Shown here piece after piece: positions 41,300-57,787 of a stretch of DNA of 64,000 nt (within the stretch, counting starts at the first letter, position 1; each line of letters opens with the position of its first letter). The notes under the pieces were generated by a model. The model made no database searches, was not told the origin of the DNA, and worked only from the letters and a program-made list of their open reading frames with translations. The stretch is from an uncultured bacterium (GTDB lineage Bacteria; Actinomycetota; Coriobacteriia; Coriobacteriales; Coriobacteriaceae). The position numbers were made by a program, and so were the translations under genes. The stretch is from contig CAJMOF010000005.1 in assembly GCA_905215065.1 (NCBI GenBank), positions 23,589-87,588 of the forward strand. The letters are read 5' to 3'.

Positions 41300-41325
41300 T
41301 CGAGAAAGCTATCGCGTATTGAGTG

Positions 41326-41362
41326 GGCGGGGAGTGCCGTATCGGTGCTCCCTGCCTTTTTG
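41326..41362 (+). terminator. Rho-independent terminator of the reductase gene
   Basis: GGCGGGGAGTGCCG TAT CGGTGCTCCCTGCC followed by TTTTTG. Confidence 0.65.
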
Positions 41363-41394
41363 TCGATAAGAGGTGCTCCTGACCAGCGGATTCA

Positions 41395-41497
41395 GAAAAT
41401 CCGAATCTTATGCATCCGAAAATCCGAATCGTAGAACATGAAAATCCGAACTATATGAACACGAAAATCCGAATCGCAACCACCCGAAAATCCGAAT
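41395..41497 (+). repeat. Iteron-like array: five direct copies of GAAAATCCGAA(T/C) with 22-23 bp phasing
   Basis: Copies start at 41395, 41418, 41440, 41463 and 41486. Confidence 0.85.
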
Positions 41498-41556
41498 TTG
41501 CTACAGTGGAATAGAAGAATCAGAAAGCAGGACCTGGAAATCTGCGGGGGCGGCTC

Positions 41557-42861
41557 ATGGCAGGCGAGAGGCTACATCGGGACGGATACATCCCACGTAT
41601 CGTGGATGCGCAAATCGAGCGCTACCTTCGTGTCTTTGGCGCGGTCGAGATTGCGGGCACCAAGTGGTGCGGCAAGACGTGGGCCGCGCTTGAGCACGGG
41701 GCGTCCGCCTCGTATGTCGACGAGAATCTCGACCTCGCGCGTGCCGACCCGGCGATGATGTTGCTGGGAGACCGTCCGCATATTATCGATGAGTGGCAGC
41801 GCGTTCCCCAAATTTGGGACTACGTTAGACACGAGGTTGATCGCACCCGGGGCACGCGCGGCGCCTATATCCTCACGGGTTCCGCCACGCCTGCGTTTGG
41901 CTCAAAGGCGGAGGCGCCCGCGCATAGTGGAGCCGGCCGCATCGGCCGCGTCCGCATGCACCCCATGACGCTTGCCGAGACAGGTGAGTCCAACGGCAAG
42001 GTGAGCCTGGCGGGCTTGTTTGAGCATCGTTTTGAGCCCTGCCGGTGCAATGGCGATACACCGGGGCTTGTCGAAGCCGCCTGCCGCGGCGGCTGGCCCG
42101 AGGCGATCGATATGGTTTCGGCTGACGCCCAGCTCATCGCCCGCGAATATCTCAACACCACGTTTTCGAGCAGCTTTCCGGCGGTCGGTCTCGACCCCGA
42201 TATTGCTCGTCGAGTCTCCGCATCGATCGCGCGCAATCTGGGACAGGCAACCACGTATAAAACGATTCTTATGGATATGTTCGGTGCCGAGGAGGAACCC
42301 GCAGCGTTTGCCGATGAGACCAAGGTGCGCAGGTACTTGGATGCTCTCAAAGGCATGTTCATTCTCGAGGAGGTCCCCGGTTGGGTTCCCGCCGCGCGCG
42401 ACAAACGGCGCTTTACCGTCAAGCCCAAGCGCTATCTGGCAGATCCGAGCCTTGCTTGCGCCTTGCTAGGTATGTCCTTGCAGGCGCTGCTTGCCGACTG
42501 GCAGACATTTGGTCTGGTGTTTGAGAATTTGGTCATACGCGACCTTTCGGTCTACGCACGTTCGCTCGACCTGCTGGATAGCACACCCGTGCGCTATTAT
42601 CGCGACGATTCGGGCCTTGAGTGCGATGCTATCGTGCAGCTAGCCGACGGACGGTGGGCCGCCTTTGAGATTAAGGTAAGTGAAGATAAGGCGAGTGCCG
42701 GCGTTGAGAGCCTCAAGCGCGTTCGCAAGAAGGTCTGTGGAAATCCTCGTTCACGCACACGCGAACCGGAGTTTATGGCCGTGATTGTGGGGGTGGGTGA
42801 GTACGCCCGCGAGGTCGAGGACGGTATCTACGTGATACCCGTGCGCGCGTTGGGGTGTTAA
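41557..42861 (+). CDS. AAA-family ATPase with C-terminal DUF4143-type domain
   Basis: YIPR..D..IERYL, Walker-A-like GTKWCGKTW, ILTGS. The C-terminal region with YYRD..G.E.D.I matches the AAA_14/DUF4143 architecture. Confidence 0.75.
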   Translation: MAGERLHRDGYIPRIVDAQIERYLRVFGAVEIAGTKWCGKTWAALEHGASASYVDENLDLARADPAMMLLGDRPHIIDEWQRVPQIWDYVRHEVDRTRGTRGAYILTGSATPAFGSKAEAPAHSGAGRIGRVRMHPMTLAETGESNGKVSLAGLFEHRFEPCRCNGDTPGLVEAACRGGWPEAIDMVSADAQLIAREYLNTTFSSSFPAVGLDPDIARRVSASIARNLGQATTYKTILMDMFGAEEEPAAFADETKVRRYLDALKGMFILEEVPGWVPAARDKRRFTVKPKRYLADPSLACALLGMSLQALLADWQTFGLVFENLVIRDLSVYARSLDLLDSTPVRYYRDDSGLECDAIVQLADGRWAAFEIKVSEDKASAGVESLKRVRKKVCGNPRSRTREPEFMAVIVGVGEYAREVEDGIYVIPVRALGC

Positions 42862-43136
42862 GGGGCGGCACGCCGTGTGCCCGCTGCCCGGTGCTGCGGA
42901 TTGGTGCAAGTGGTCAGGTTTGTTTGCACCATGTCCTTGGCATATGGAAGAAGCTGCTATTCGTAATCTTTAAGACATCATTAAGGCTTGCGCTGTGGAG
43001 CAAACCGCAGGTCAATGCTATTCTTTTACCTTATCGTATGGTGTTGTATTCTGCCTGAATTCTCTACCTGCGAACAACGGATAAACGCGACCGAGCGTAA
43101 AGGATGGCACGCCCGCTAGCAGGGCAAACGTAAACG

Positions 43137-44195
43137 ATGAGTGGCATGGACCGACATAGCGAGCTCCAGCAGCACAAGACGGCGGCCGAGTACCGCCAGG
43201 CTGCCGACGAGCACGTGCGGACCCTCAAGGGTTTCTGGAAGGATTTCCTGGTGAGCGGTCTGTTTGTGCTGGCCGCCATTGTCGCCATCTTTGCATGCCT
43301 GGCCTGGTTTGCCGGGAACAACCGCGTGAGCGCTACGGGGAGCACGATCGCGGCGAAGGGCCCGCGGTTTGTGCTCTCGGGAACGCAGGGCGGCACGGCG
43401 GGTAAGTACGACACTCAGGACAACTACGCGTCGGACAGTACAAGCCTTGCCGTGAACAATCTTTTCAACCTCAATAACATGAGCACCGATGGCGGTCTCT
43501 CTCCGGGGTCGGCCGGCCAGCTCCAGCTCAACGTCAGGCCGCTCTGCAATGACCTGCACGATATCACGGTGGAGATGACCTGGGAAATTTCTGTTCAGAC
43601 GAGCGTTGCGGGCACGGGCGGCACTGCTGCGGATGCATCGAAAAACGAAGAGATCATCAACTCGCTTAAAGATTTGGTGCGCGGTCATATCCTGGTTTTT
43701 CAGGGCAAAGATGCCTCTGGCTTTTACTCGAATCCGCTGGTCCCCACGACCACCACGGTGACCCAGGACGGGGCCAGCGTCACCGTCATTACGCAGAGCT
43801 TTACCATCCCAAAGTCGAGCTTTTACGCTGCGGACTCAAATAGCACGACCGAAACCGTCACCAAAACCCTCTACTGGATTTGGCCGGAACAGTTCAAGAG
43901 CTATGTTCGCACGGGCAACGCCGGCTACGGTGGCAACCTTTTCGCTAACACAGGCGACGAGGGGGGATACACAACCCTCGTCGGCGACATCAACAATAAC
44001 CACGCGCGCTATTTCCGCGCCGATAGCACGAGCGTGCCAGGTCAGGCGCCTAGCGCGGTTCCGCCTGTCGGAGCCGGCGTGTCCTCTGCGGATGTGGAAA
44101 CCTGCGCCAGCTACTACAACAACGCCGACGAGATTATCGGCAAGAACGTCAAGTACATTCGCGTGCGCTTCACCGCCAAGGAGGCGGATAAATAA
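43137..44195 (+). CDS. Signal-anchored extracytoplasmic protein 1 of the giant-protein operon (hypothetical, TasA/SipW-signal-like N-terminus)
   Basis: About 35 charged residues, then one TM (FLVSGLFVLAAIVAIFACLAWFAG), then NNRVSATG. Contains an LSPGSAGQLQLNV strand-like motif. No RBS evident. Alternative ATG at 43146. Confidence 0.7.
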   Translation: MSGMDRHSELQQHKTAAEYRQAADEHVRTLKGFWKDFLVSGLFVLAAIVAIFACLAWFAGNNRVSATGSTIAAKGPRFVLSGTQGGTAGKYDTQDNYASDSTSLAVNNLFNLNNMSTDGGLSPGSAGQLQLNVRPLCNDLHDITVEMTWEISVQTSVAGTGGTAADASKNEEIINSLKDLVRGHILVFQGKDASGFYSNPLVPTTTTVTQDGASVTVITQSFTIPKSSFYAADSNSTTETVTKTLYWIWPEQFKSYVRTGNAGYGGNLFANTGDEGGYTTLVGDINNNHARYFRADSTSVPGQAPSAVPPVGAGVSSADVETCASYYNNADEIIGKNVKYIRVRFTAKEADK

Positions 44196-45011
44196 ATGGA
44201 CGAGCAGCTTAATGCCCGCGAGCAGGGCGATATCAAACACAACGAAGGAGCGGCAAACCCCGGCGGCAACGGGTTCGGCTCGCACGGCGAAGCGCGTCCG
44301 GCTGGCCGCATCGAGCGCATCAAGGCTTGGGTGAGCGACCGCCGTCGCGAATCCCTGGCCATCGTGGGTCTGGTGGCCGTGCTTCTCGTGTTGCTGGGAT
44401 TGACGCTCGGATGGTTCGTCGATGCCAATCGCGGCTCCACCGTTGGCAAGATCAAGGAGCCGGCGGAGCTCAAAGTGCTGGGCCCCAACGCTACGGCAAC
44501 AGAGCAGGTCGACCTGAGCTACAACCCCGAATACGGCGATACCAAGACCGGCAACACGGTGACGCTCAAGCGCCCGTTTTGCGTGCAGACGGGCGGTGAC
44601 GGTTTTGAGCTGCAACTCGCGAATACGACCAACATTACGGGCCTCACTATCGAGCTGTATAAAGCTGAGGATACGGGCCTAGGTGATGCTCCCGACGTGA
44701 GGGGCACTGCGGGCGGCAAGCCCTATAGCTGGAAAATGTATGAAACGGATCTGCTGAAGAGCTTCACGCCCATCGAAGACCCGGGCGAGGGCGCAAGCGA
44801 CCCTACATTCAAGGACTATCAAAAGGTCCAGCGCAACGCGCGCCCGCTCTACCGATACAAGGTGTTCAACAAAGACGAGCTCAATGCCAAGACGCTCGAC
44901 GGCTCGACTGGCAACGACACGCTTAACTTCATCATCAAGCTTTCGTGGGACGAGAGCACCAAAGAGACCGACGTGATCTACCTGATCGCGCGCAACACGA
45001 GCGGTAAGTAG
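44196..45011 (+). CDS. Signal-anchored extracytoplasmic protein 2 of the operon (hypothetical)
   Basis: The ATG directly follows the previous TAA. RBS AAGGAGG. About 52 charged residues, then a TM (LAIVGLVAVLLVLLGLTLGWFVD), then ANRGSTVG. Shares the W-F-x-x-x-N-R-x-S motif with protein 1. Confidence 0.75.
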   Translation: MDEQLNAREQGDIKHNEGAANPGGNGFGSHGEARPAGRIERIKAWVSDRRRESLAIVGLVAVLLVLLGLTLGWFVDANRGSTVGKIKEPAELKVLGPNATATEQVDLSYNPEYGDTKTGNTVTLKRPFCVQTGGDGFELQLANTTNITGLTIELYKAEDTGLGDAPDVRGTAGGKPYSWKMYETDLLKSFTPIEDPGEGASDPTFKDYQKVQRNARPLYRYKVFNKDELNAKTLDGSTGNDTLNFIIKLSWDESTKETDVIYLIARNTSGK

Positions 45012-45025
45012 GAGAGGGGGCGCAC

Positions 45026-45970
45026 ATGGAGAAGCAAGGGAGGCAGCAGGATGCCGAGCGCGAGCAGCTGGCAAAAAGCAAAAGCCTAGTCAAGAATAAG
45101 CTGGTTGTGGCGGCAATCGCACTTGTTTGCGCCGTGGCGCTCGTGACGGGTGGTTACTTTACCTATTCCGCCTACACCGCCAACGGATTTCTAAAGTCCG
45201 TCGCCGCAACGGGCACCGCGCAGAGCCTGTTTGCGAGCGATTTGCTCACGGGCTATATGAGTACGCCTAGCAACGACGACCTCGCCCGTGCCCAGCGCTC
45301 CGTTACGGTGTATCCCAGCGGCGGACAGTGCAGCTTCACCTTTAGCATCTACAACTATTTGCTGAGCAACAGCAACTTCTGCAACGACAAAAACGTGACG
45401 TACACCTTGACGGTCGAGGGGCATGGGCTCGATGGCGCCACGTGGAGCTATGAACCCCAGCCCGGTAGCAGCGTCACGCTTCCGGAGAATCAACCTACCA
45501 AGAACACCTACACCGTGACCTTCCCCGAGGCTAAGTTGGGACAAGCATACTTTGTGATTAAGGCCACGGTCGTATCGGAGAAGAGCCCCGGCACCGAGCT
45601 AGCCTGTCTGGCGGCGAAAGTCGTGCCGTCAAAGAGGGCCGAGGTCAAGACCGCTGCGGTTGAGGGCGCGCTGGTCGATGAGGCTGGCAAGTTTGCTGAT
45701 TACGCTGCATACAACTACCGCGTGACGGTTACGGGCGCACTGGCAAACGTCACGCTCACGTGGGGGGAGAACGTGGAGATCGACCCGTTCTTTGAGACCA
45801 ACCATAGCGCGACGGTGGATGCTGCAGCTCGCAAGGCTACGTTCACCATGGAGCCGGGTTCGATGGTCGTCAACTTTTACCGAGCGGACGGCAAAACGCC
45901 CGGTGGCTGGGGCGACCTGGACATTAGCGTGAGCGGAACTACTCTGACGGGCGCGACGGAGACTCGATAA
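45026..45970 (+). CDS. Signal-anchored extracytoplasmic protein 3 of the operon (hypothetical)
   Basis: RBS GGAGAGGGGG. Charged N-terminus, then a TM (LVVAAIALVCAVALVTGGYFTYSAYTA). The remainder looks beta-rich (TYTLTVEG, NYRVTVTG). Confidence 0.75.
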   Translation: MEKQGRQQDAEREQLAKSKSLVKNKLVVAAIALVCAVALVTGGYFTYSAYTANGFLKSVAATGTAQSLFASDLLTGYMSTPSNDDLARAQRSVTVYPSGGQCSFTFSIYNYLLSNSNFCNDKNVTYTLTVEGHGLDGATWSYEPQPGSSVTLPENQPTKNTYTVTFPEAKLGQAYFVIKATVVSEKSPGTELACLAAKVVPSKRAEVKTAAVEGALVDEAGKFADYAAYNYRVTVTGALANVTLTWGENVEIDPFFETNHSATVDAAARKATFTMEPGSMVVNFYRADGKTPGGWGDLDISVSGTTLTGATETR

Positions 45971-46009
45971 CTCTGGAAGCGGAGTTTTAGGATAAGAGGT
46001 ACGGAATCG

Positions 46010-49000
46010 ATGAGAACGGCAAAGCGCATATTCGCAGAGTTCATGACGGTGGTCATGGTGCTCCAAGCATGCTCGCCCACGGTGGCTGCTGTGGCGGCAG
46101 GCTGGCAGAACATCTCGAACGAGATTGCTGCCGCATCTGCGAAGGCGTTGGATACTGCCGAGAGCGGCGAGACCAACGGCGATGTCACGATCGGGTCTGG
46201 GTCGAGTGATGCCGGCGCCGACAGCGACAGTGCTGGGGATGACGCGGTGAAGGATGACGCTGCAGCAGGCGATACCACCGATAGCGCCACTGGTTCCGAT
46301 TCCACGGGCGACCAGACGGAAGGCGACGATGCCGCTGACGATGCCGCCGCTGACGACGCCGAGCAAGATGCCGATGATGCGACTTCGGAGGACGCTGATG
46401 CCCAGGCGGGTGCGACGATCACGGATTTGAATAAGCTCGTCGAGCTGCTCGAGAAGAACGGCGCGGAAAGCATCGTGCGCAAAGACGACGAGAGCGGAAT
46501 CCGAAGCCTCGATGTCAAGTCGTCGGAGGCGTTCGCCGTCCTGTCTAACGCCGACGCTTCGCTTTACTATGATGCGCAGATCAAGGTTATCATCACGGGC
46601 GATGCGAAGCTCACCGAGTCGGCTAATAACGGCATGTCTTTCCAGGGTCTTGGCAGTGATGAATGTCCGTTTGAAGGCAGGATCTATAGGGACGTTGATA
46701 GTCCCGTCGAGCTTACGACTGATCGGACGGTTTTTAATAACCTCAAGCTGTCTGACCAAAACAAAACGGTCAGGATAAAGTGGGTAGGCGCGACTAGCTA
46801 TAGCGCACCGATGGTCGCTTCGAAGGTCAGCGGTGCGGAAAACGGCGAAGAGAGCAAGACACTCATCGCGTCGGTTGACATCGTGGAACCCGTGAACGTT
46901 GATGTGAAGGATGCGACTTCCGCCTTGACGGCACCCCTCCTGGGTGCGACGACGGGCGACCTTGCTGCGAACGTTACCTATAGCCTCACCGATTCTCGAA
47001 AGAATCTCAACGCGAATGCGACGGGCAACATTGGCTTGATTGCCAACACGGTCGAGAGCGGGAGCTTGACGGTTGAGTCCGTCACGTTCCCCAACGATCT
47101 GACCTCAGGCGGAGCCGTCAAAACGAGCTCTGGCAACGCTGGCCTGCTCGTAGGCGAAGTCAAGGACGGTGCGACCCTGAGCATTGGCACTCTGGCAAAC
47201 GTTCCCACCGCCACCGTCCAGTCTACGAACGGCTCCGCCGGTGGCGTTGTAGGACTCGTTGGCTCGAGCACGGGTGCCATGGTCAACGTCGCGAAAGCTC
47301 TCGACCTACACGCGCTCACCGTCAAGGGCACAACTGCCAGCGGCGGTTTTATTGGTAAAGCGACCGTGCTCACACTGGGCGCGGATAATAAGCAGATTGG
47401 GTGTCCTCTAAATATTGGCGACGAGAACAGCGCTTGCTCTGGTGGCGTTATCGGCGACGTGAGCTTTGCGCAAGGATTTGCCGTTACGTCCAATATGTTC
47501 GACCTGGGCGACCTTGTGACTCTTGGTGCGTCGCAGCGCGCCGGCGCTCTTTTTGGCATGGCCGATATCTCTAATGGAGACATCGTGGTGCAAGGCGGGA
47601 CGTATAAGAGCAAACTCGCCTTACCAGAAGATGTTAGTGTCAACGGCAGCTACGGCGGCCTTGTCGGCAAGGTGTTCGCGACGAAAACGGACGACGACGG
47701 CGCTTTGCGCGCCTTTGTTGTTGAAAAGGATGCAGATAATAAGAATACGTGCTCAATTGAGTTTGACCTTGCGAGCAAGTTGTCCGACGCAGGCGGCGTT
47801 GTTGGCTATGTTGGCGATAGCGCAAATCCTAACTCGCAGCCCGTTGCCGTTGTCTTCAACGGCGTGACGGTTGCGTGCAAGGGAGATGCTTCGGCGCGAA
47901 CGGGTACCGGAAAGTTCGGTGGCGCCGTGGGCGTTGTCGATACGCGCAATGTCCTTGACGTGCGAGATTTCAAACTTACAAGCGACAATCCTATCGGTAA
48001 GGCGCAAAGCAACCGTGCCGCGGGAATTGCGGGATCCGCGTGGAATGCTGTAATCAAATTCAGCGGCATCACGGATCTGTCGGGCGCAAGTTTTGCCGAG
48101 AACGCCACGACGGGTCAGCTCGTATACGAGAACCACAACGCGCTGATCTTCGCTGCCGGCAATGGCTCTAATGGTGATCTGGGAGACAAGGGCGCTGCGG
48201 TCTGGACCTTCAAGCGTAGCAACTCAGCCTCAAAGACGGACGACATCGCGACCTACGGTGAAGTTGTTCGTCTGGGCGGCGACTTCATTAAGCTTGATGT
48301 GGACACTCATAAGTTGACCTTGCCGGATTCGCTGACGGCAGCTAACGGTGCCTACGCCCTAACCACAGCTGAGGATTTCGCCAAGCTTGCGATTACCTGG
48401 CAAACCAACGGCTACTACTCGATGGTTGACGGCGTTACCGAAAACAACCTTAACGGCTTGCAGTCCTCGACCATTACGGTGAACGGCACTATTGATCTCA
48501 AGGGCACGGGCCTGACGGGTTTCACGCAGGATCGTGCAGACGGCTCGCAAGTTTTCTCGGGAACGTTGAACGGTGGCGGCACAATCAATCTTGCCGTCGG
48601 CGAGGCGTACGGCAAGCGTGGTGAAGACGTGCTCGACGGCAATAACACGAGCAACGGCAACGGCAAAATCTACCGCCACGGCCGCTTGGGCTTGTTCGCG
48701 GCCGTCAACGGTGCAACCATCTCCAACGTCACAATCGCTGGCTCCATGAAGTTCGATAACGGTTCGGCTATCGATGCCGGGTCGCTTGCGTGTGCCATCG
48801 TCGGCAACCTGTCATTGTCTGGCGTAACGTGCAAAACGAATATCGCGTGCGATGATACGTTTGCCAATGACGTGAACATTGGCGGTATTGCGGGCAGCGT
48901 GCTGGCGGCTTCTACGGTTGCGTTTAAGGATAACAGCAAGGCTCAAGCGACCATCGCTGCAACTAAAACGCTTAACGGCAATAGTCGCATTGGCGGCGCC

Positions 49001-52000
49001 ATTGGTTATGCGGGCGATTATGGCTCGTCATTCAATGTTGCGGGCCTCGAAGTCGCCGGATCAATCGAAACTGGCGATTGCGCCGGCGGCAAGATTGCCC
49101 AAGTCGGTGGTCTTATCGGCTGCATCGCACAGAGTACCTACAATGCAGGGACAATAGCCAACTCAGCTGATAAGTACGTGAACATTTCGGGCCTTTCGTT
49201 CAATTCATTCGAAATGAAAGTCGGCAGGAACGGCGATAAGCTCAATGGCACGGGTGGTTTCTTGGGTTATAGCTGGGGCAACGCGGTCGTAACTATCGGA
49301 GATGAGAGCATTAACAAGAATGAAAACTCTTATGCTCTGAAAACGACCAACGCTTCTATAACCGCGACTGCGGATGATTCCAAGGAACTCGGTGGTCTTG
49401 TATACGCCGCGAGCGGCCACTGGATTATCAACAACTATGCCATCGATCTCTCGGGCACAACCATTAATGCGGGCGCCGCTCAGACGCTCGGCGTTCTAGT
49501 TTGCCGCGGCTGCAAGGTGGATGATAAGACGACATATGGCGTCGAGAGCTACCTAGGCCTGTACTTGGAGGACAGGGCTTATTGGGATACCGCCTATAGG
49601 GTGCCCACCGGCGAGGGGGCCATCGTTGCGTCGGGCGTAACGTCCTTCGATGAATGGGTTGGCAGCGGTGTAAAACCAAACAACGGCAGCAAGCTCATGG
49701 ACGCCGACTGGAACACGGTCGTTTCGCTACACACACAGAAAAACAAGCTGGACATGGACGGCGATTCCACAAAAGACAACAGCTACCATAATCGCTCGTC
49801 TTTCGGTCGAAGCCAGAATACGAACGGCAATACCCGCTACTTCTACAACCTCGACATAGTCTCTAAGAATTGTGAAGGCGGCTTTAGTGGCAGTCAAATC
49901 GATACAGCGGAAAAGCTGCTCTTATGGTCTGCTTACCGTTATGCTCCCGAAGGTATTCGTTCGACAATCGTTCCCAATGGCACGACAGGGCTCGATGATT
50001 CCATAACCATAACGGGTACAATCGATTTGGCCGGCTACAGCTATTATCCAACTCAGCCGAGCGGAGAGGTGACGGTTGAGAATGCGACCATTACCTTCTG
50101 TTACTCCAAGATCAAGGCCGAGCAGAATGGCAACAAGCTAAATTCCGATGCTACCCAGCACGAGAACATGCACTGCGGTCTTTTTCGAACGGTGGCAAAC
50201 GGCGATCTCACAGTAAAAAACGTCACTTTGCGTGGTACTGTTGGGCCCGTTATTAATGACGGAAAGAGCTCTGAAGACACTGATGGAGCAAGCGGAAGCT
50301 CTTCGGGCGCGCTCGTGTGCCGCTACGTGTATGGGTCCAGCGACGGCAATGGCACCAAGATTAGAAAGATCTCAATTGATGGTCTTACGCTCAACAATCT
50401 GATTGTCGACGGCGCCAACAGCGCCACGGATGCTAACGCCTATATGCCTCTGCTCATCAACGAGATGCAGAAGTACGTGAGCCTGAACGCGAAGAATATC
50501 AAGACTACTGGGTACACGAGTGACACCAAGGCGGCTACGTCGCTGTTCGGAAAGCTTGGTGTAGGCAGTGAGGCCGATCAGGTGACGGCAAAGTTTGAGC
50601 AAATCAGCTTGCCCAGCCAAAAGAACAAAACGATCTTCACCCATGCGAGCCTGCTGGAGAGTTTTGGCTACGGAAGCACGAGCACGGGCTCTGCGGACTA
50701 CACCTTTACTAAGGCCGATGCCGATGCCGATGCAGGCAAGGTGACATACGGATCTGAGATTGATGGGAGTACGGAGTACCCGGGCAAGCAGCTTTGGTAT
50801 TACGACGAAGCGACGTATGGTGCCGTGAGCGGCTATGTGACGGTTGATGGTAAGAAGGACGGTGACGTCAGGCCTTGGTTTGGTGGCTATCTTCCTTATG
50901 TTTATAAGGGAAAGGCCACCGAGAGCGGCGTCCAATATCATGAAATTAAAGTCAACCAGCGCATTCCAAAGCTGGTAGAGGGATGCGGCACATATGGCGA
51001 TCCGTATGCCGTTAAGGACGCGACTGAGATGAACGCCATCGCCAACTACATCAACAACCAAACTGCGCTCGACGGTTGGGAGGTCACCATTGCCGTCAAC
51101 CAGAGTACGCTCTGTACTCGCCGCAGCGACAATAAAACCGACAATGAGGTTACGTACGTCTATAAGCAGGCGAAAGACACTGGGAAGAAGTGGGAAAAGA
51201 AGACCGGCGACACCACTGATCCTTCGGCCACACTTTCCGACGAGATGATGCACCGCTATATCCAAAGCGCGTACTACAGTATTGAACCTACCGGGGGTAA
51301 TACGATCACCCTCGACGGCGCATCGTTTGGCGGTTTTGGCAACAAAGCCAACCCGTTCCGTGGCGTCATCGTTGGCAACCCTAAAGGTGATAAAAAGGCA
51401 ACCATCAAGATAGAGAATAACGAGGGTTCGCTTCGCGGCCTTATTCCCTATAGTTACGGCAGCGTGGTGCGAGATCTGAATATTCGCTATGTGAACGCGT
51501 CGGCGACTATTACTTATTCTGCCAAGGATGCCGACGGTGTTCCGACGTCGTTCTTCGGTGGCGTTATCGGCTGCATCCTTGGCGGCGATAACATTATCGA
51601 CGGTGTGGCCGTGAATGGGACAACGCCCGATAACTCCACAACCGGCTTTACGGTTGCTGGTGGCGGAACTAAGCCACATCTTGTTCCCATCGGCGGTTAC
51701 GTTGGTGCCATTGCGGGCGGCGGTGTGATCTTCCGCAATATGTCAGGGACGTCTTGGCGCGCTGGAACCAGCGACAAGTCTCAGGGTCTTGGAACGGGCA
51801 ACTTCCGGCAGTACGACAATCCCTACGTTGGTCGTGTGATTGATGGCTATGCCTTTAGCGAGGGCTGCAAAGTCGAAAACGGTAACGCTAACTACAAGAT
51901 CAACGAGCTCACAAACAAGGGAGCTGCCTGCGTCACTACCACGGGCACCGACAACAAGTATATCGGCACTGATGCCGAGGCACCCGTGACCACGGTGGAA

Positions 52001-55000
52001 AACGCCCAGGGCCTTTTGGTGCTCTCGGCCATCATTAGCTCGGGTGCGGGTGCTGGAGCGGCACATACTGACTACGCTAATTATGGCGTGTTCCGCGGCT
52101 CCAAGGCGTACTGGGGCAGCGATAAGCAGGACCCGGCGATAAACGGCTACCTGTTTGGCAACAAGGAATATGGTAAGGTGCGAAATGCCAGCTACGACTG
52201 CGTGGGCAAGCCTGCGAGCGCTTCCGGCGATTTCGAAACCGCCAAAAACGATGACCAGAAGGCCCCGGGCAAACAGGGGTGGCACGGCCCGCTCAACCAT
52301 GATGACGATGTAAATTCGCCCTACCTGGTGGCGTCCTACGCTGCCGACTACCAAACGGGCTACGTGTGCGCGTCGAAATCGATCGGCATGAGCCTGGAGT
52401 TCAAGGAAAATGCCACCTATGATATGACTGGCTACGGCACGGGATACGTGGGTCTCAGCGGCCGTTACTATTCCAATGCTTGCAGCTCGAACGAGGCGTC
52501 CACCGATCGCGACCGCATCACGCCGCACGTGGCAACGATCGACGGCAACGGGGCCACCATCACGGTGGGCACCAAAGATGCCACTTACGGCGTCGTCGAA
52601 TATGCCGATGACGACTATAAGGTCTCGGGCGTGGGCGGCCTATTCAGCACCGTGATGTTCACCTCAACCAATGTGGGGCAGAGCGTCACCGCGAATGACG
52701 GCGCTCAGGTCAAAGACCTCACCTTTAGTAACTGCAACGTATCGCTCACGTACAAAGACGCCAACGGTAGCATTGCCTCGGGACCGGCATCGAACGACCT
52801 CATCGGCACCGGCCTTTTGGCGGGCGCAACGGCCAACTACGACGGCAACACGCGTGGCGTCTACCGCAACGTACAGATGAAGAACTGCACCGTGTTGGGC
52901 GCAAAGAGCGTAGGAGGGCTTCTTGGCAGCTCGGGCCGTACCAGCCGAAGGACGGATAACGACGTGACCTATATGGTCAATTTCGGCTCCGGCACGCAGG
53001 CGCCCGCGAATCTCTGTGACTGCTCATACACTGGCCTTAGCGTCACGGGCGAGAAGTACGTTGGCGGCTATGTGGGTGCGATCGCCTCGCCGTGCGGAGT
53101 GTGGACAACCGCGGCCACAGGGGTATACGAGAAGACTATTGGCAAAAACTCGACCATAACCGCCACGGGTACAACACCCTACGTGGGCGGCGTGTTCGGT
53201 TATACCTCCAGTAACGTATCGGTGAACACCAAAATTGGCATCACGGAAGCCGTCGCATCGAGCACGGCAGTCATCTCTGGGGTAAATGTACTCGCCACCG
53301 GGTCGAACACCGATAAGTACATGGGCGCCGGCGGTGTGGTCGGAAGCGCCTATAGAGGCGTTATTTCTATAAGCAACGTGCGCATTGATGCCGGAGGCGA
53401 TGCCAAGAGCGCCATCATCGGCGATGCCACCGGAACGAACAATAGCATCCGTAATGCGGGCGGCTTGATTGGCGAGGTCACGAGCAGTGGCAGCCCCAAC
53501 ACGTACTGGTTTGAGGACTGTAGCGTCGAGAATATCAACATTGCCGGCACCGACCAATGCTCGGGCGGACTTATCGGCTACTACTTCAGCAATGTGAACA
53601 TAGCCTGCAACAATATCGCGATTGAGAGCGCCACGATCAAGGGCAGGTGGAGCGGCGGTCTACTTGGCGCGATTAACAGCGGTGCCGACGTCATCAACGT
53701 CACCAACACAAAGGTATCTAACACAACGTTTGGCGGAACCTCCAACGGCGGCATTGCGGGCGACGGACGCGGCCAGTTCCATCTGGTAAACGTGCTCATG
53801 GACAGCAATACCTACAAATTGGGCTCTAAGCAGGGCGTGCTCTTAGGCGAGGTTGACACAAACGGCTATAGCCTCTCCGCAGCGGGCGTGAACGTAAAGC
53901 TCGGCAACGGCAAGACCACGCGTGATCTGCCGCCGATGGTTTACACGACCAATGCGGCCGCCGTAAACATGAAGTCGTATATCGCGTTTGGTGACTATAA
54001 CGACACACTGGAAGCACCTGACAAGGGGATCACGCTCTACGGCGCGGACAATACCGCCACCACGGCAGCGAGCCCGTATGTGACCACGAGCCCCGTAAGC
54101 ACGCTGGCGGCGCGTGCCTCCGACAACGACACCACCGATCGCTACCTGTTTGGCGACGGCGCCACCATCGACACCGCGGCGACCGTCCAGAGCGAGGCAG
54201 GCACCGGTGTTGCCGATCGCTACACCTACACGAATATCGGCGGCATTAATGACAACGGCGCCTATCAAAATAAGTCGAGCTACGATGCCTCATCCGTGGC
54301 CAGTAAGTTCAATTCGAATAATGATACAAGCAGCAACCAAGCCACAGCGGATTTCCCCGTTTTGGTGATCTCTGGCAACGACAACACGACGGTCAAGAGC
54401 TATCTAAACATCGTCACGAACGGCGGCTTCTCCGATGCCTGCAGATTGAATAACGAGAATGGCACCAATCCGCACGTGACGGCCAAAGCAGAGGTTTTCC
54501 AACTCAAGGACGGTGTGTTCGTTAAAGACGGTGACGCGTCGAACAATCCCACGCTTCGCGTAGTGAACAATGGCAAGAACAATATGTCGTTTAGCCCAAG
54601 CTCCGATTGGGACAACGGCAAAGGTCGCTTTACGCTCCTGACCGTTACCTTTACCGAGGCGGGTCAGAGCTACAACGTTCAGGTGCCGATCATCGTTAAG
54701 CGCAAGCTCGAGATCGATTTCACTGCAACGTATGATTACGGCACTCAATTTAAAGAAAAAGACTACGCTAACCTTGGAAAAGATGCACACGTGCTTACGA
54801 GCTTTGGCGAGCCGATGACGGGTCTGCTTACCTGGACATACAATTCTGCCAATGGGAAGGAAGTCGACTTTGGCTGGGACAGCTATATGGCTGCTGGCGG
54901 CTCGATGAAGGGGCTCGGCAAGAGTATCCTCTTCAATGGTGCCGACGGAAGGTTGCCCCAGGGCACCCAGCTTACGCTCATCGATGCGAACGTTGATGGC

Positions 55001-56680
55001 AAGGCCGGTGGCAGAGAGTATCACTATACGGTGGGCGAAGGCGGAGCAACGAGCGTTTCCCTGAGCGGAAACGACGGCTTTAAGGATTCTGCGGGCAATC
55101 CATATCAGGAGCGATGGCTGAGCGAGATCTTGGGTGTGTCGGCCACGCAGGATGGCGCCGGCACATGGACCGTGTGTGATAACGAGGCAGAGGCGACCGC
55201 TAAAGCGAAACTCGATGGCAAGTGGACGCTGTTTAAGGTTGCGGGTGCTGACGTTCCCAGCAACAGTCGCTATACGCTAAAGGTGCCCAAGGAGAAGGAT
55301 ACCGGCAGAGAGAAGCGTGCATCGGAGAGCGTCTACCTAGTTGTCAACGTGCCCAAGTCGGGCGACGGCGTGACGCAAGCTAGTATCAACGGTTTTACGG
55401 CTTCGTCTATTGACTCGAATTCTTCGGGTGGCCGCATATCTTGGAATCTGCATCATGTTTTACGCACCGATGGCAGCGACGATATTCAAAACAGTACGGC
55501 ATCGACATACAGCATCTTGTCCAATTATGAGCAGAATGTAGTCGACAAAAAAGATGGGGCGTGCATTCCGGTTTCGAAGTCGGAGGACGGTGCCGCCTAC
55601 GTTCTTTCTCTCGATGTCATGGATACGGTTACGTTTAGCCCGAGCCAATACTATACAGAGAGCGACCATCTGTTCTATCAGCTCGATACATCGCTGTGTC
55701 GCTATGGCGCCAACAACAACCTAATGGGAGTAAGCAGTTTCCCGAGCGGAACTTCGGCAATTGCGAAGTTCTATGTTGCCATCGGCAATCAGAACTACAG
55801 GTGGAGCGGCAGCGATTGGGAGCCGTATGACGCTTCGACGCCTGCGTTTACACAGATTGTGACGGATACGGGTGATGACTCACTGAGGCTCACGCTCGAC
55901 CATGACCTTGCCGGAATCCGCAAGCGTGCAGCGGGCGGATCCTTTACCGTGCGTACGGTAGTGGAAGAGATTCGCCTTACGCCGGACGGCTGCAACAAGG
56001 TTATCTCCCTGTCCAAGCAGTCTGGCGAGGACGCCTGTACCAAGATGTCCTATACCGCCAAGCTTTCGACGCGTAAGGAAGGCCTTAATACCTCGAGCCT
56101 GACGCAGACGAAGCGCGGTAACGTCGGGTACTATCGCATGGACACGGGTGATACGACCATTACGCTTTCTGCGCCAGATAAGTCGCAGCTTGGCATTAAC
56201 GTGGACGACCTGCGTCCGATCGCGAATGGCACGATTGGTCTGGGTGCCACGTATGAACTGGGTGGACTCAGCAACGCCGCCGAGGCAATTGCGAACGCAG
56301 ACTCTGTTGTGTACACGCTCTCGCTTCAGCGCCGCGGAACCGACGGCACGTATGAGAGCGTAACGGATGATATCTCAAACTACGTAACAGTGACGGAGAG
56401 TAAGCTTGCCGCGGTCGCTCCCTCCGGTAGCACGATCACCTTCACTGACTCGAAGGAGAACGGCAAGTTCAAAACGAAGAACGGTAATACGACGCTTAGC
56501 CTGCCCTTTACCGTTAAGGTCAACACGCAGGTTGAACAGCGTGAGCAGTTCTACGCGAACTATCGCTTGGTGATGACAGCGAGCCTGGTTAAGGGTGACG
56601 TGGCGAGCGCAACGCCTCAATCGCCCGACTATGTGACCTATACGCTCACGAGGGTGAACCTCAACGGCATCGACCACTAG
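46010..56680 (+). CDS. Giant (3,556 aa) secreted beta-helix-repeat surface protein (GLUG-like GG[LVI][VIL]G repeats), no sortase signal
   Basis: N-terminal signal (KRIFAEFMTVVMVLQAC, lipobox-like LQAC). Asp/Ala/Gly-rich acidic tract. More than 25 GGxxG-type repeat units (AGGVVGLVG, SGGFIGKA, YGGLVGKV, VGGLIGCI, SGGLLGAI and others). Module starts of the type F.G.G...PF.G.I. About 750-aa non-repetitive beta-rich C-terminus ending ..VNLNGIDH with no LPXTG or TM segment. RBS AAGAGG. Confidence 0.85.
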   Translation: MRTAKRIFAEFMTVVMVLQACSPTVAAVAAGWQNISNEIAAASAKALDTAESGETNGDVTIGSGSSDAGADSDSAGDDAVKDDAAAGDTTDSATGSDSTGDQTEGDDAADDAAADDAEQDADDATSEDADAQAGATITDLNKLVELLEKNGAESIVRKDDESGIRSLDVKSSEAFAVLSNADASLYYDAQIKVIITGDAKLTESANNGMSFQGLGSDECPFEGRIYRDVDSPVELTTDRTVFNNLKLSDQNKTVRIKWVGATSYSAPMVASKVSGAENGEESKTLIASVDIVEPVNVDVKDATSALTAPLLGATTGDLAANVTYSLTDSRKNLNANATGNIGLIANTVESGSLTVESVTFPNDLTSGGAVKTSSGNAGLLVGEVKDGATLSIGTLANVPTATVQSTNGSAGGVVGLVGSSTGAMVNVAKALDLHALTVKGTTASGGFIGKATVLTLGADNKQIGCPLNIGDENSACSGGVIGDVSFAQGFAVTSNMFDLGDLVTLGASQRAGALFGMADISNGDIVVQGGTYKSKLALPEDVSVNGSYGGLVGKVFATKTDDDGALRAFVVEKDADNKNTCSIEFDLASKLSDAGGVVGYVGDSANPNSQPVAVVFNGVTVACKGDASARTGTGKFGGAVGVVDTRNVLDVRDFKLTSDNPIGKAQSNRAAGIAGSAWNAVIKFSGITDLSGASFAENATTGQLVYENHNALIFAAGNGSNGDLGDKGAAVWTFKRSNSASKTDDIATYGEVVRLGGDFIKLDVDTHKLTLPDSLTAANGAYALTTAEDFAKLAITWQTNGYYSMVDGVTENNLNGLQSSTITVNGTIDLKGTGLTGFTQDRADGSQVFSGTLNGGGTINLAVGEAYGKRGEDVLDGNNTSNGNGKIYRHGRLGLFAAVNGATISNVTIAGSMKFDNGSAIDAGSLACAIVGNLSLSGVTCKTNIACDDTFANDVNIGGIAGSVLAASTVAFKDNSKAQATIAATKTLNGNSRIGGAIGYAGDYGSSFNVAGLEVAGSIETGDCAGGKIAQVGGLIGCIAQSTYNAGTIANSADKYVNISGLSFNSFEMKVGRNGDKLNGTGGFLGYSWGNAVVTIGDESINKNENSYALKTTNASITATADDSKELGGLVYAASGHWIINNYAIDLSGTTINAGAAQTLGVLVCRGCKVDDKTTYGVESYLGLYLEDRAYWDTAYRVPTGEGAIVASGVTSFDEWVGSGVKPNNGSKLMDADWNTVVSLHTQKNKLDMDGDSTKDNSYHNRSSFGRSQNTNGNTRYFYNLDIVSKNCEGGFSGSQIDTAEKLLLWSAYRYAPEGIRSTIVPNGTTGLDDSITITGTIDLAGYSYYPTQPSGEVTVENATITFCYSKIKAEQNGNKLNSDATQHENMHCGLFRTVANGDLTVKNVTLRGTVGPVINDGKSSEDTDGASGSSSGALVCRYVYGSSDGNGTKIRKISIDGLTLNNLIVDGANSATDANAYMPLLINEMQKYVSLNAKNIKTTGYTSDTKAATSLFGKLGVGSEADQVTAKFEQISLPSQKNKTIFTHASLLESFGYGSTSTGSADYTFTKADADADAGKVTYGSEIDGSTEYPGKQLWYYDEATYGAVSGYVTVDGKKDGDVRPWFGGYLPYVYKGKATESGVQYHEIKVNQRIPKLVEGCGTYGDPYAVKDATEMNAIANYINNQTALDGWEVTIAVNQSTLCTRRSDNKTDNEVTYVYKQAKDTGKKWEKKTGDTTDPSATLSDEMMHRYIQSAYYSIEPTGGNTITLDGASFGGFGNKANPFRGVIVGNPKGDKKATIKIENNEGSLRGLIPYSYGSVVRDLNIRYVNASATITYSAKDADGVPTSFFGGVIGCILGGDNIIDGVAVNGTTPDNSTTGFTVAGGGTKPHLVPIGGYVGAIAGGGVIFRNMSGTSWRAGTSDKSQGLGTGNFRQYDNPYVGRVIDGYAFSEGCKVENGNANYKINELTNKGAACVTTTGTDNKYIGTDAEAPVTTVENAQGLLVLSAIISSGAGAGAAHTDYANYGVFRGSKAYWGSDKQDPAINGYLFGNKEYGKVRNASYDCVGKPASASGDFETAKNDDQKAPGKQGWHGPLNHDDDVNSPYLVASYAADYQTGYVCASKSIGMSLEFKENATYDMTGYGTGYVGLSGRYYSNACSSNEASTDRDRITPHVATIDGNGATITVGTKDATYGVVEYADDDYKVSGVGGLFSTVMFTSTNVGQSVTANDGAQVKDLTFSNCNVSLTYKDANGSIASGPASNDLIGTGLLAGATANYDGNTRGVYRNVQMKNCTVLGAKSVGGLLGSSGRTSRRTDNDVTYMVNFGSGTQAPANLCDCSYTGLSVTGEKYVGGYVGAIASPCGVWTTAATGVYEKTIGKNSTITATGTTPYVGGVFGYTSSNVSVNTKIGITEAVASSTAVISGVNVLATGSNTDKYMGAGGVVGSAYRGVISISNVRIDAGGDAKSAIIGDATGTNNSIRNAGGLIGEVTSSGSPNTYWFEDCSVENINIAGTDQCSGGLIGYYFSNVNIACNNIAIESATIKGRWSGGLLGAINSGADVINVTNTKVSNTTFGGTSNGGIAGDGRGQFHLVNVLMDSNTYKLGSKQGVLLGEVDTNGYSLSAAGVNVKLGNGKTTRDLPPMVYTTNAAAVNMKSYIAFGDYNDTLEAPDKGITLYGADNTATTAASPYVTTSPVSTLAARASDNDTTDRYLFGDGATIDTAATVQSEAGTGVADRYTYTNIGGINDNGAYQNKSSYDASSVASKFNSNNDTSSNQATADFPVLVISGNDNTTVKSYLNIVTNGGFSDACRLNNENGTNPHVTAKAEVFQLKDGVFVKDGDASNNPTLRVVNNGKNNMSFSPSSDWDNGKGRFTLLTVTFTEAGQSYNVQVPIIVKRKLEIDFTATYDYGTQFKEKDYANLGKDAHVLTSFGEPMTGLLTWTYNSANGKEVDFGWDSYMAAGGSMKGLGKSILFNGADGRLPQGTQLTLIDANVDGKAGGREYHYTVGEGGATSVSLSGNDGFKDSAGNPYQERWLSEILGVSATQDGAGTWTVCDNEAEATAKAKLDGKWTLFKVAGADVPSNSRYTLKVPKEKDTGREKRASESVYLVVNVPKSGDGVTQASINGFTASSIDSNSSGGRISWNLHHVLRTDGSDDIQNSTASTYSILSNYEQNVVDKKDGACIPVSKSEDGAAYVLSLDVMDTVTFSPSQYYTESDHLFYQLDTSLCRYGANNNLMGVSSFPSGTSAIAKFYVAIGNQNYRWSGSDWEPYDASTPAFTQIVTDTGDDSLRLTLDHDLAGIRKRAAGGSFTVRTVVEEIRLTPDGCNKVISLSKQSGEDACTKMSYTAKLSTRKEGLNTSSLTQTKRGNVGYYRMDTGDTTITLSAPDKSQLGINVDDLRPIANGTIGLGATYELGGLSNAAEAIANADSVVYTLSLQRRGTDGTYESVTDDISNYVTVTESKLAAVAPSGSTITFTDSKENGKFKTKNGNTTLSLPFTVKVNTQVEQREQFYANYRLVMTASLVKGDVASATPQSPDYVTYTLTRVNLNGIDH

Positions 56681-56702: not shown

Positions 56703-56740
56703 AAAGGGGGCGGCAACCACCCGGTTGCCGCCCCTTTTCT
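56703..56740 (+). terminator. Strong rho-independent terminator of the giant gene
   Basis: GGGGGCGGCAACC ACCC GGTTGCCGCCCC followed by TTTT. Confidence 0.85.
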
Positions 56741-56769
56741 AGTCTGCGCGATCCCAGTCTTGGACTCCG

Positions 56770-56974
56770 CTGGACAGTTAGTTCAGATACGTATAATTCC
56801 AGACCGCAGCGGGCGCATCCGGCGCTCGTTTTGGGGAAGAAAGGGGCTCAAAACTAGGGTTCGGTAGCCATCTGGGCTCGATTTGCGTGCAATGAGTCGC
56901 CAAAGAACCCTCTCCGGGGACCATAGCGCACCTTTATCAGCATAGAAAAATACGTATCTGAACTAACTGTCCAG
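56770..56974. mobile_element. MITE-like element, family 1, copy D
   Basis: CTGGACAGTTAGTTCAGATACGTATAA ... AAATACGTATCTGAACTAACTGTCCAG. Confidence 0.8.
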
Positions 56975-57016
56975 CCGCCGTTGGAGAAAGGTGTTTTAGC
57001 TCTCCCGACCTCTCCA

Positions 57017-57102
57017 CCAAGCTTTCCAACTTTCCACTTAACTTAACACCTAAGGTGGAAAGCTGGGTAGAAAGCTGGAAAGTTAAGTGGAAAGCTGGAA
57101 AG
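57017..57102. repeat. Cluster of (T)GGAAAG(C/T)TGG motifs arranged as direct and inverted repeats
   Basis: CTTTCCAACTTTCCACTTAAC (57023-57043) against GTTAAGTGGAAAGCTGGAAAG (57082-57102). Extra GGAAAGCTGG copies lie near 57057 and 57070. Confidence 0.7.
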
Positions 57103-57382
57103 TACGCGGAAGACTGGCATGCTAGCTCACAGGCTAGGAGGGGTTAATAATTACGCAAGCTATACCGAGCCAAACAAAAAGATATCAATCTGGTTGGTAA
57201 AACACCCTCAATGAGCTGCGAGCTAACTAGCTGCGTAAATATAAGGTAAAGAAATGTCGCAAATAAATGGCAAATGCCCAGATGCCGCCGTTGCTATTTT
57301 CAATTAACTGCTACGCGCGAACAGCAAAATGCTACTATCTAACATGCACATAAGAAAGCAGATTAACGGTTAAGGCTAAGAA

Positions 57383-57787
57383 GTGGCAGGTATGTCGGAA
57401 GCAACAAGGACTCGCACGCATGCGCCCGAGGTTAGGCAGCGCGCCGTCGAGATCCTCCAAGAGGGGGTCGGTCATCGTGCCCTCGCCGCGGAGCTCGGCA
57501 TTCCCCAGGCCACGGCTCGTCAGTGGGCCCGCGCATATGCCGTGGGCGGTGCCGACGCCGTTCTCAACGCCGGTTCGCATCATCACACCTATTCGTACGA
57601 AGTTAAGCTCGCCGTGGTCAAGGACCGCTTGGAAAACGGCTTAACGGTTCGCGAGGCCATGATCAAGCACAAGATTCCCAGCGAGTCTTCGGTCAAGGCT
57701 TGGTGCCGTCAGTACCGCGAGAGCGGTGAGTCCGCACTGGTCGATAAGCCGCGCGGTCGCAAGCCGCGCGTTAAAAAGGCGGAATAG
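57383..57787 (+). CDS. IS3-family OrfA-like helix-turn-helix protein (orphan, no OrfB)
   Basis: HTH region (EVRQRAVEILQEGVGHRALAAELGIPQATARQWARAY) followed by a second HTH/leucine-zipper-like part, as in IS3 OrfA. Alternative ATG at 57392. No transposase catalytic ORF follows. Confidence 0.6.
   Translation: MAGMSEATRTRTHAPEVRQRAVEILQEGVGHRALAAELGIPQATARQWARAYAVGGADAVLNAGSHHHTYSYEVKLAVVKDRLENGLTVREAMIKHKIPSESSVKAWCRQYRESGESALVDKPRGRKPRVKKAE

Follow-up and report, generated by a model that had tools for sequence, protein, structure and literature searches.

The window analyzed here is a 64,000-nucleotide (nt) stretch of contig CAJMOF010000005.1 (GCA_905215065.1), from an uncultured member of the Coriobacteriaceae. 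It contains a Collinsella operon of four genes, which encode three small proteins (here p1, p2, and p3) and a very large repeat-rich protein (here the giant). All four open reading frames (ORFs) lie on the + strand with intergenic gaps of 0, 14, and 39 nt (Table 1), exactly as in a first-pass annotation that had been made from the sequence alone. The good ribosome-binding sites that it had assigned to genes 2 to 4 are present as purine runs upstream of p2 (AAGGAGG), p3 (GGAGAGGGGG), and the giant gene (AAGAGG), and the corresponding sequence of p1 is weak. The single strong terminator downstream of the last gene was likewise recovered; its hairpin has 16-nt arms that are 94% complementary and a 4-nt loop, and it was overlooked by a simple terminator scanner because its T-run is short. 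An Rfam search of the intergenic region upstream of p1 (42862-43136) found no riboswitch or other Rfam element, and with zero matches a riboswitch or cyclic di-GMP (c-di-GMP) RNA 5' of p1 was ruled out. The sole Rfam match across the 64-kb window is a tRNA gene (38746-38819), 4.3 kb upstream of the operon.

To place this operon among its relatives, we gathered 119 loci with a p1 homologue, of which Collinsella or other Coriobacteriaceae account for about 86; the remaining loci come from gut and rumen metagenomes (low-GC contigs) and from Ruminococcus albus 7. Where a single locus has to be named, it is given an L number. From a scan of genome contigs, 80 loci were kept, all from Collinsella-type genomes. 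Counting only loci long enough to show the neighbor in question, p2 follows p1 in 112 of 113 loci, p3 is present in 105 of 106, and the giant in 97 of 98. Because the gene set recurs at this frequency, the four-gene arrangement is far beyond chance, and the four genes are one conserved functional unit, inherited together across Coriobacteriia and Clostridia. Near-identical loci occur in many Collinsella genomes. Outside Collinsella, the order p1-p2-p3-giant is kept at 22 to 37% p1 identity, with giants of 3,750 to 4,123 amino acids (aa) where the length is known; the neighborhood of three small genes and one giant gene, whose conservation the first-pass annotation had raised, recurs even across phyla. 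The gene set is also kept in the permuted order p1-giant-p2-p3 in L120/L121 (1-11709; 41.6% GC), and L090 (2-11158) has the order giant-p1, where the available part of the locus shows neither p2 nor p3.

Table 1. Coordinates of the operon, its control signals, and EAL genes of related loci. Positions refer to the window unless a locus is named.
Feature	Location	Strand	Description
p1	43137..44195	+	352 aa
p1 post-signal segment	43299..43367	+	aa 55-77, LAWFAGNNRVSATGSTIAAKGPR; putative CLA↓WF site and candidate donor/interaction strand
p2	44196..45011	+	271 aa
p3	45026..45970	+	314 aa
Giant	46010..56680	+	3,556 aa
Upstream intergenic region	42862..43136	+	275 nt, presumed promoter
Intrinsic terminator	56703..56744	+	Hairpin 56703-56738, then TTTTCT; closes the operon
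EAL gene	L102 4306-5982	-	213 bits
EAL gene	L106 148-1830	-	200 bits
EAL gene	L122 4989-6674	-	Precomputed PF00563 match

The small proteins have a common layout at their N termini. A Kyte-Doolittle scan located one hydrophobic segment in each (residues ~37 to 56 in p1, ~54 to 72 in p2, and ~26 to 43 in p3), in agreement with the single transmembrane (TM)-like segment assigned to each of them earlier. In p1, a cytoplasmic N-terminal helix precedes the segment, and the motif L-A-W57-F58-A-G-N and an ectodomain follow it. The p2 protein opens with a long low-complexity cytoplasmic N terminus and continues past its segment with G-W73-F74, a conserved (K/T)(I/V)KEP strand, and a beta-sandwich core, while p3 carries GG-Y44-F45-T-Y after its segment and has the family consensus AAYT..SVKRVVST. 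Clustering at 90% leaves 837 relatives of p1, and clustering at 50% leaves 304; all are 300 to 430 aa long and unnamed, and residues W57, F58, P123, G127, H184, F188, W247, W249, D331, and G335 are invariant in the family. For p2 there are 849 relatives, in which the motifs HTTN (residues 144 to 147) and KETD (256 to 259) are invariant and for which the sole name given is "hypothetical protein" (Ruminococcus flavefaciens, Ruminococcus sp., and Oscillospiraceae); for p3 there are 435. Organism names among the small-protein relatives are Ruminococcus, Oscillospiraceae, and Lachnospiraceae, and all homologues of the module proteins are annotated "hypothetical protein" and lack a Pfam domain.

AlphaFold2 (AF2) modeling of p1 with 56 diverse relatives gave a long N-terminal helix followed by a beta-sandwich that carries two long helices (predicted local distance difference test [pLDDT] score, 83.8). 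The p2 model, built with 53 relatives, is a beta-sandwich with a pLDDT of 69.4 overall and 84 to 93 in the core. The p3 ectodomain is probably Ig-like, as suggested by a weak match to Pfam FixG_C (Ig-like; E of 0.0013) that lies below the cutoff. BLASTP detected no mutual similarity among the p1, p2, and p3 ectodomains, and simple paralogy of p1, p2, and p3 was ruled out.

What p1, p2, and p3 do share is their signal architecture, a hydrophobic segment that ends in a small residue and is followed by W/Y-F. The motifs quoted in the first-pass annotation for the TM exit, namely LAWFAGNNRVS (p1 residues 55 to 65), LGWFVDANRGS (p2 residues 71 to 81), and GGYFTYSAYTA (p3 residues 42 to 52), were all found at the places given, as was LSPGSAGQLQLNV at p1 residues 120 to 132. 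A site compatible with the (-3,-1) rule directly precedes each W/Y-F (CLA↓WF, TLG↓WF, and TGG↓YF, with the arrow at the candidate cleavage point). In alignments of the p1 and p2 families, nothing is more constant than this motif; its family forms are IAWF(A/V).N in p1, (Y/S/G)AWF in p2, and (S/Y)(A/G)AYT in p3. From the one N-terminal hydrophobic segment and the (-3,-1)-type site of each, the small proteins are, as had been proposed for them, predicted to be exported or membrane anchored and not cytoplasmic, and all four products of the operon are predicted to be exported via N-terminal signals.

The same signal class appears in a further set of 260- to 400-aa proteins encoded in related loci, here the sA family, whose short ordinary signals end in TS-TYAWFT.N. 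In profile comparisons with hhalign, p1 matched the sA family with 96.8% probability (E of 3e-10) over 123 columns that cover the hydrophobic segment, the motif, and the first strands; p2 matched sA at 91%, and p1 matched p2 at 87.7%. Since these matches span the segment and the motif, p1, p2, and sA have in common a signal class with its adjoining strand, not a whole domain. The earlier suggestion that the TM-exit motif is a feature shared by all three small proteins thus holds at the profile level for p1 and p2, but p3 is weakly linked (47% probability). The processing site of TasA is T-W-A↓A-F-N-D, and in our reading the T-Y-A-W-F-T-x-N of sA would parallel it, as would the family N termini IAWF.N of p1, YAWF of p2, and AAYT of p3.

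The stretch that follows the motif is better conserved than the ectodomain in both p1 (residues 57 to 77; 2.11 versus 1.55 bits) and p2 (residues 73 to 90; 3.01 versus 2.40 bits). The lowest-confidence stretches of the AF2 monomer models also fall here, at p1 residues 62 to 73 and p2 residues 77 to 88 (both with pLDDT of <50). By analogy, and not as a test, a segment that is conserved yet modeled with low confidence would match the donor strands of TasA/BsaA fibers. The proven donor strand of BsaA, residues 28 to 38, is reported to behave in this way: monomer models show it as a loop without order, whereas in multimers it enters the sheet of the neighbor (bioRxiv 10.1101/2024.11.04.621531). 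TasA-family sequences are extremely divergent, and the several paralogues per TasA-type operon suggest heteropolymers (bioRxiv 10.1101/2024.11.04.621531).

The giant starts with a Sec-type signal peptide (residues 1 to ~30), which is its only hydrophobic segment by the Kyte-Doolittle scan, and an acidic low-complexity linker at residues ~45 to 135. Three blocks of GLUG-like GGxxG repeats occupy residues 411 to 671, 958 to 1082, and 2302 to 2580. The motif GG[LIVF][LIVA]G occurs in 19 copies, against 3.9 ± 2.0 in shuffled sequences (~5-fold enriched), and its copies are spaced 30 to 49 residues apart. A GLUG-like beta-solenoid is plausible for this protein; the beta-helix proposed earlier is indirectly suggested by the enrichment and spacing of the motif, but the Pfam GLUG model (PF07581) gave no match to the giant at an E of ≤1. 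Inspection of the C terminus and a regular-expression search found neither an LPXTG-type sorting signal nor a C-terminal TM segment, and both parts of the earlier description, a signal peptide and no LPXTG, are correct. Homologous giants in related loci range from 3,252 to 4,123 aa, and no Pfam domain was found in five giants, the window's and four homologues. The C-terminal third is more variable and gives poor alignments with giants from distant loci; the giant of L089 aligns mainly to residues ~139 to 2090 of the window's protein. A lipoprotein anchor was considered for the sequence LQAC and rejected: its Q at -2 does not fit the lipobox consensus, and the N termini of the other giants compared have no Cys at this place.

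None of the four proteins could be assigned to a known family. Searches of p1, p2, p3, and the giant against Pfam, NCBIfam, and PHROGs returned zero family matches, and neither single sequences nor four family profiles matched any PDB sequence. A type IV pilin or pseudopilin class III signal was not found, the conserved motif being located after and not before the hydrophobic segment; the operon encodes no prepilin peptidase or ATPase, and Pfam Pilin_N gave a single chance-level match. The Pfam domains of WxL/Csc clusters (WxL, DUF916, and DUF3324) had no matches. An LPXTG-type signal with TM segment and positive tail is absent from all four proteins by the same search and inspection, for which a GH31 surface protein of the window with IPNTG at residue 2102 served as positive control. 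A phage origin was ruled out, as there were no relatives in viral contigs and no PHROG matches.

Some distant versions of the cluster are larger and include genes for candidate processing enzymes. SipW-type (archaeal/endoplasmic reticulum-type) signal peptidase I genes lie inside three of them, L087, L089, and L090. Against the TIGR02228 cutoff of 51.85 bits, the two copies in L089 score 108 and 92 bits and that in L090 scores 97.6 bits, and L087 has a homologous SipW-type peptidase. The link of the small proteins to SipW, which the first-pass annotation had drawn from their signals, therefore gains independent support from context. The same three clusters hold further sA-type ("TYAWFT"-signal) genes and a DUF2357 (McrC-N-like) protein. 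In L089 and L090 there is also a membrane-anchored McrB-like AAA_5 ATPase with an N-terminal TM region of ~220 residues, which plasmid McrB homologues lack. The regions with AAA_5 or DUF2357 are L089 1271-7376, L090 14995-18999, and L087 1-1653. In L089 one SipW-type peptidase gene lies on either side of the pair, and a PilZ gene comes after it; in L090 the C-terminal region of the DUF2357 protein has weak DivIVA-like matches. The AAA_5/DUF2357 pair may be either a defense pair embedded in the cluster or a motor of restriction type that has been co-opted for assembly of the envelope.

Links to c-di-GMP were also found in related loci. A PilZ protein is encoded in the L087 and L089 clusters, and in the Ruminococcus-type loci L102, L106, and L122 an EAL (c-di-GMP phosphodiesterase) gene is divergent from sA-p1-p2-p3-giant (Table 1). 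A similar ORF in L105 is a candidate EAL gene. In scans with Pfam, NCBIfam, and PHROGs that covered the neighbors as well as the 56 p1 relatives and the four other giants, the relevant matches were solely to SipW, AAA_5, DUF2357, PilZ, and EAL, all of them in neighbors.

In Ruminococcus albus 7, the module resides on the conjugative 353-kb megaplasmid pRUMAL02 (MOBP, MPF_T). This copy (L119; NC_014825.1 280435-296968) consists of sA, a p1 paralogue without the W-F motif, p1, p2, p3, and a 3,750-aa giant; the six linked genes, RUMAL_RS20010 to RS19985, are all annotated "hypothetical protein". It is adjoined by IS66 and by plasmid partition and mobilization genes, with ParM, MobC, and relaxase genes within ~5 kb. 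The module adjoins ParA/ParB/primase in L094, and in the window the GC content of the operon is 0.53 to 0.58, compared with 0.60 to 0.65 in its surroundings. These three contexts argue that the module is horizontally mobile.

Within Collinsella, a second allele is present at the same chromosomal site (L091-L093, compared with window positions 39197-56680). While the flanking oxidoreductase is 98% identical, identities are 46% for p1, 41% for p2, 47% for p3, and 70% for the giant. The first ~70 residues of p1, which comprise the helix, hydrophobic segment, motif, and strand, are nearly identical between the alleles, and divergence begins thereafter; a recombination boundary apparently lies inside p1, after residue ~70. 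This pattern is pilin-like: pilins and other surface antigens likewise pair a conserved end, used in assembly, with an exposed domain that is hypervariable.

Several features border the operon. Directly upstream of p1 is an AAA_14/DUF4143 ATPase gene (41557-42861) that the alternative allele, L091, lacks. In L117/L118, another high-GC lineage, the module is preceded by a 426-aa ORF that resembles this gene, a match based on the N-terminal sequence alone, and the ATPase gene may travel with the module. Just past the terminator, a 31-nt inverted repeat (56769-56799 / 56945-56975; 94% complementary) flanks a 145-nt segment. It could be a miniature inverted-repeat transposable element or an invertible switch, and no recombinase was identified beside it. 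Direct and inverted repeats of the GGAAAGCTGG type cluster at 57010-57107, and a 134-aa HTH_28/HTH_Tnp_1 transposase-like ORF occupies 57383-57787; together they look like an insertion sequence remnant bordering the operon. The sortase and the IPNTG substrate that the first-pass annotation had placed in the same window are both present, 35 kb from the operon. The sortase gene (8101-9099), whose product matches Pfam Sortase with an E of 2.4e-10, lies ~0.7 kb downstream of the substrate gene (970-7383), and an AIR carboxylase gene separates the two; the substrate is a 2,137-aa GH31 / F5_F8 type C / FIVAR surface glycosidase. Sortase and substrate are a separate, conventional sortase-anchored system.

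Taken together, these observations make it probable that the module is, in general terms, a surface adhesin-display module. In the more specific interpretation that we favor, to which we assign a probability of roughly 0.5, the operon is the Collinsella copy of a mobile four-gene module that forms a sortase-independent, SipW-class surface fiber or anchor for a giant adhesin. In this scheme, p1 to p3 would be processed at A/G↓W/Y-F by a type I signal peptidase, which would be SipW-type in the clusters that encode one. The newly exposed N-terminal segment would donate a strand to a partner subunit, in the way that TasA and BsaA exchange donor strands, so that p1, p2, and p3 would form a short heteromeric base or stalk. 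The anchorless GLUG-repeat giant would be held by this base and project from the wall as the adhesive element. In Ruminococcus-type loci, the extra "TYAWFT"-signal protein would probably be the bulk fiber subunit, and EAL or PilZ proteins would place the systems of related loci under c-di-GMP control. The Collinsella operon would then be the minimal version, which has no peptidase, major subunit, or regulator in cis. Both the tethering and display of the giant and the strand-exchange polymerization of p1 to p3 are purely inferred.

The closest analogies are with sortase-independent fiber systems. The Bacillus subtilis TapA-SipW-TasA system (IPR022121, PDB 8aur) is, like the module as we interpret it, independent of sortase. 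Its TWA↓AFND site and the module's CLA↓WF, TLG↓WF, and, in relatives, TYA↓WFT are alike in that a hydrophobic signal ends in small-aromatic-small-aromatic-F. Further likenesses are the dedicated archaeal-type signal peptidase I, present in some module clusters, the presence of different subunit genes in one operon, and a conserved N-terminal segment after the cleavage site. Unlike in the TasA system, however, p1 and p2 have neither sequence-profile nor significant fold similarity to TasA, the Collinsella operon and the window lack sipW, the cytoplasmic N termini are much longer (~36 to 53 aa), and the tapA operon encodes nothing equivalent to the anchorless repeat protein of 3,300 to 4,100 aa.

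Clostridium perfringens sipW-bsaA-bsaB-bsaC (PMC7395162; bioRxiv 10.1101/2024.11.04.621531) is similar in combining, within one operon, several divergent small subunits with a larger secreted protein, and its BsaA has a post-signal donor strand that is disordered in monomer models, as the corresponding segments of p1 and p2 are. BsaA is reported to have an N-E-K isopeptide triad, and p2 has an invariant N146 and E257 and a near-invariant K256; the Asn, Lys, and Glu of the HTTN and KETD motifs could form a BsaA-like triad. Whereas BsaA and BsaB are recognizable as TasA homologues by iterative hidden Markov model (HMM) searches, p1 to p3 are not, and whereas BsaC is a 70-kDa vWA protein, the giant is a 380-kDa GLUG-like repeat protein.

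More distant parallels exist as well. SpaA-type sortase pili also combine a few small subunits with one large adhesin encoded together, have a variable exposed domain, and occur in gut commensals, but none of the four proteins has a sorting signal and the operon has no sortase; the sortase of the window, which adjoins its own IPNTG substrate 35 kb away, serves as a contrast. The Pseudomonas LapA/LapD/LapG system likewise has a very large repeat adhesin without a covalent anchor, held by envelope partners (for the module, our own proposal), and a link to c-di-GMP, here via PilZ and EAL in related loci. Lap, however, is a Gram-negative system that relies on type I secretion, has a protease switch in the periplasm, and shows no homology to the module, and the Collinsella operon has no c-di-GMP gene. 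With GLUG-motif beta-solenoid proteins (PF07581), the giant has in common a GG(L/I/V)(V/I/A)G motif every 30 to 49 residues in its three blocks, although the Pfam model does not match it. We found no Pfam or NCBIfam model, genome annotation, or paper that describes the module, and literature searches on Collinsella adhesins, SipW/TasA-like clusters, pRUMAL02, and the protein accessions of R. albus yielded no description of it, in line with the first-pass statement that no named system has this composition. The module thus resembles TasA/BsaA in logic, while its families, its folds as far as tested, and its giant cargo are new.

Several results weigh against a SipW-class fiber. The small proteins had been described as TasA/SipW-signal-like, and the HMM searches lend no support to membership in the TasA/camelysin or TIGR04088/TIGR04089/TIGR04090 families: Peptidase_M73 (PF12389; TasA/camelysin, IPR022121) gave no match at an E of ≤1 for p1, p2, or p3 and none at an E of ≤0.1 among the 56 diverse p1 relatives, and none of the three TIGR models matched p1 to p3. 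Weak matches to these SipW-signal models appeared in 2 of the 56 p1 relatives (E of 0.004), an AWF-signal paralogue in L087 reached 14.7 bits against the curated TIGR04088 cutoff of 19, and six "TYAWFT" paralogues had no match to TIGR04088; the cutoff was reached by no protein tested. Nor did four family profiles find a TasA chain among PDB sequences.

Fold comparison led to the same result. In Foldseek searches of the PDB, the p1 and p2 models matched nothing significantly (all with an E of ≥7e-3 and a TM score of ≤0.43), a profile that fits a generic beta-sandwich, and the TasA-like jelly-roll fold (5of1/8aur) suggested earlier is unsupported for both. For p1, the TasA fiber 8aur_A ranked 18th (E of 0.03; TM scores, 0.23/0.33), with cohesins, FimG, and CS20 pilin as its neighbors in the list, and WxLIP (9i1y) ranked 48th, also nonsignificant. 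For p2, the CFA/I pilin CfaB was a nonsignificant match (probability of 0.96; TMt of 0.43), and TasA was not among the top 50. Donor-strand pilins (CfaB, FimG, and CS20) and the TasA fiber are among the best nonsignificant matches, which we take as weak fold hints. Because the HMM and fold tests both fail, membership in TasA/camelysin is not established, and p1 and p2 are tied to that family by neither.

The context and architecture of the small proteins raise further objections, and these feed directly into the main rival explanation, in which p1 to p3 are uncleaved type II (N-in) bitopic proteins that form a membrane-proximal receptor, chaperone, or retention platform for the giant, with no processing and no polymerization. 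A tblastn search found no SipW homologue in the 64-kb window, in keeping with the earlier statement that the operon encodes no SipW-type peptidase or sortase, and among related loci with at least 8 kb of flank a SipW-type gene is adjacent in only 3 of ~10, most of the other loci having none within 10 kb; the Collinsella operon also has no "TYAWFT" major-subunit gene. The hydrophobic segments are 18 to 20 residues long. The cytoplasmic N-terminal helix of p1, TA.EYRQ.A..H...LK.FWK.F, is conserved in distant members, and residues 16 to 60 form one continuous helix in the AF2 model; because a conserved helix is unusual for a discarded signal peptide, it fits an uncleaved signal anchor better. Against such a platform, a (-3,-1)-type site stands before the invariant W-F at the segment end in all families, the same motif is found on paralogues with short ordinary signal peptides (L102, L104, and L119), and three cluster versions encode SipW-type peptidases. 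The conserved, unstructured post-motif strand is also harder to explain for a static anchor. On balance, we consider an uncleaved platform unlikely.

A further possibility is that the module is no diverged TasA system. It may be the core of a separate, undescribed class of Gram-positive surface-assembly machinery, in which three fold-distinct A/G↓W-F subunits make up a heteromeric fiber that is tipped or loaded with a 3,000- to 4,000-residue adhesin. Its complete form, as represented by L087, L089, and L090, would be driven or gated by the membrane-anchored McrB-like AAA+ ATPase with its DUF2357 coiled-coil partner, the SipW-type peptidases, and a PilZ c-di-GMP receptor. We regard this possibility as improbable, though with a real chance of being correct.

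Much less likely is that the module is cargo of plasmids or integrative and conjugative elements that promotes cell-cell contact for conjugation, in the manner of PrgB/aggregation substance. Its position on pRUMAL02 (MOBP, MPF_T), within ~5 kb of ParM, MobC, and relaxase genes, and beside ParA/ParB/primase in L094 would suit such a role, as would the transposase-like HTH ORF, the repeats, and the lower GC content of the window copy. In Collinsella, L096, and L120, however, the surroundings are chromosomal housekeeping genes without transfer genes within 10 kb, and at no locus seen does the module lie within a type IV secretion system operon. This explanation is about biological role and could hold alongside the same assembly mechanism. 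We give very little credence to the proposal that the giant is a contact-dependent toxin or polymorphic effector filament with the small proteins as secretion or immunity accessories: the giant is repeat rich and secreted, its C-terminal part aligns poorly between distant lineages, and allelic divergence at the locus is deep, but no toxin, nuclease, peptidase, or lyase domain was found in the five giants scanned, the terminator directly follows the giant with no small immunity-like ORF, and allelic divergence is greater for the small proteins than for the giant; the small proteins are also predicted to be exported, and their ectodomains are large and conserved.

Collinsella is an actinobacterium abundant in the human gut, and the species of Ruminococcus are key degraders of fiber; to our knowledge, little has been established about their means of attachment to mucus, food particles, or other cells. 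The giant is among the largest proteins of these genomes. In gut and rumen metagenomes, proteins of the module make up hundreds of clusters at 90% identity; the module is plasmid borne and has pilin-like allelic hypervariability, yet it is without any annotation. R. albus 7, which is cultured and has a complete genome with the module on pRUMAL02, offers a direct experimental entry point. If the favored interpretation of a SipW-class fiber or anchor is true, SipW-type sortase-independent fiber assembly would extend beyond the biofilm matrices of Bacillus and Clostridium to Actinomycetota and to the display of giant adhesins, and three new protein families would gain a function.

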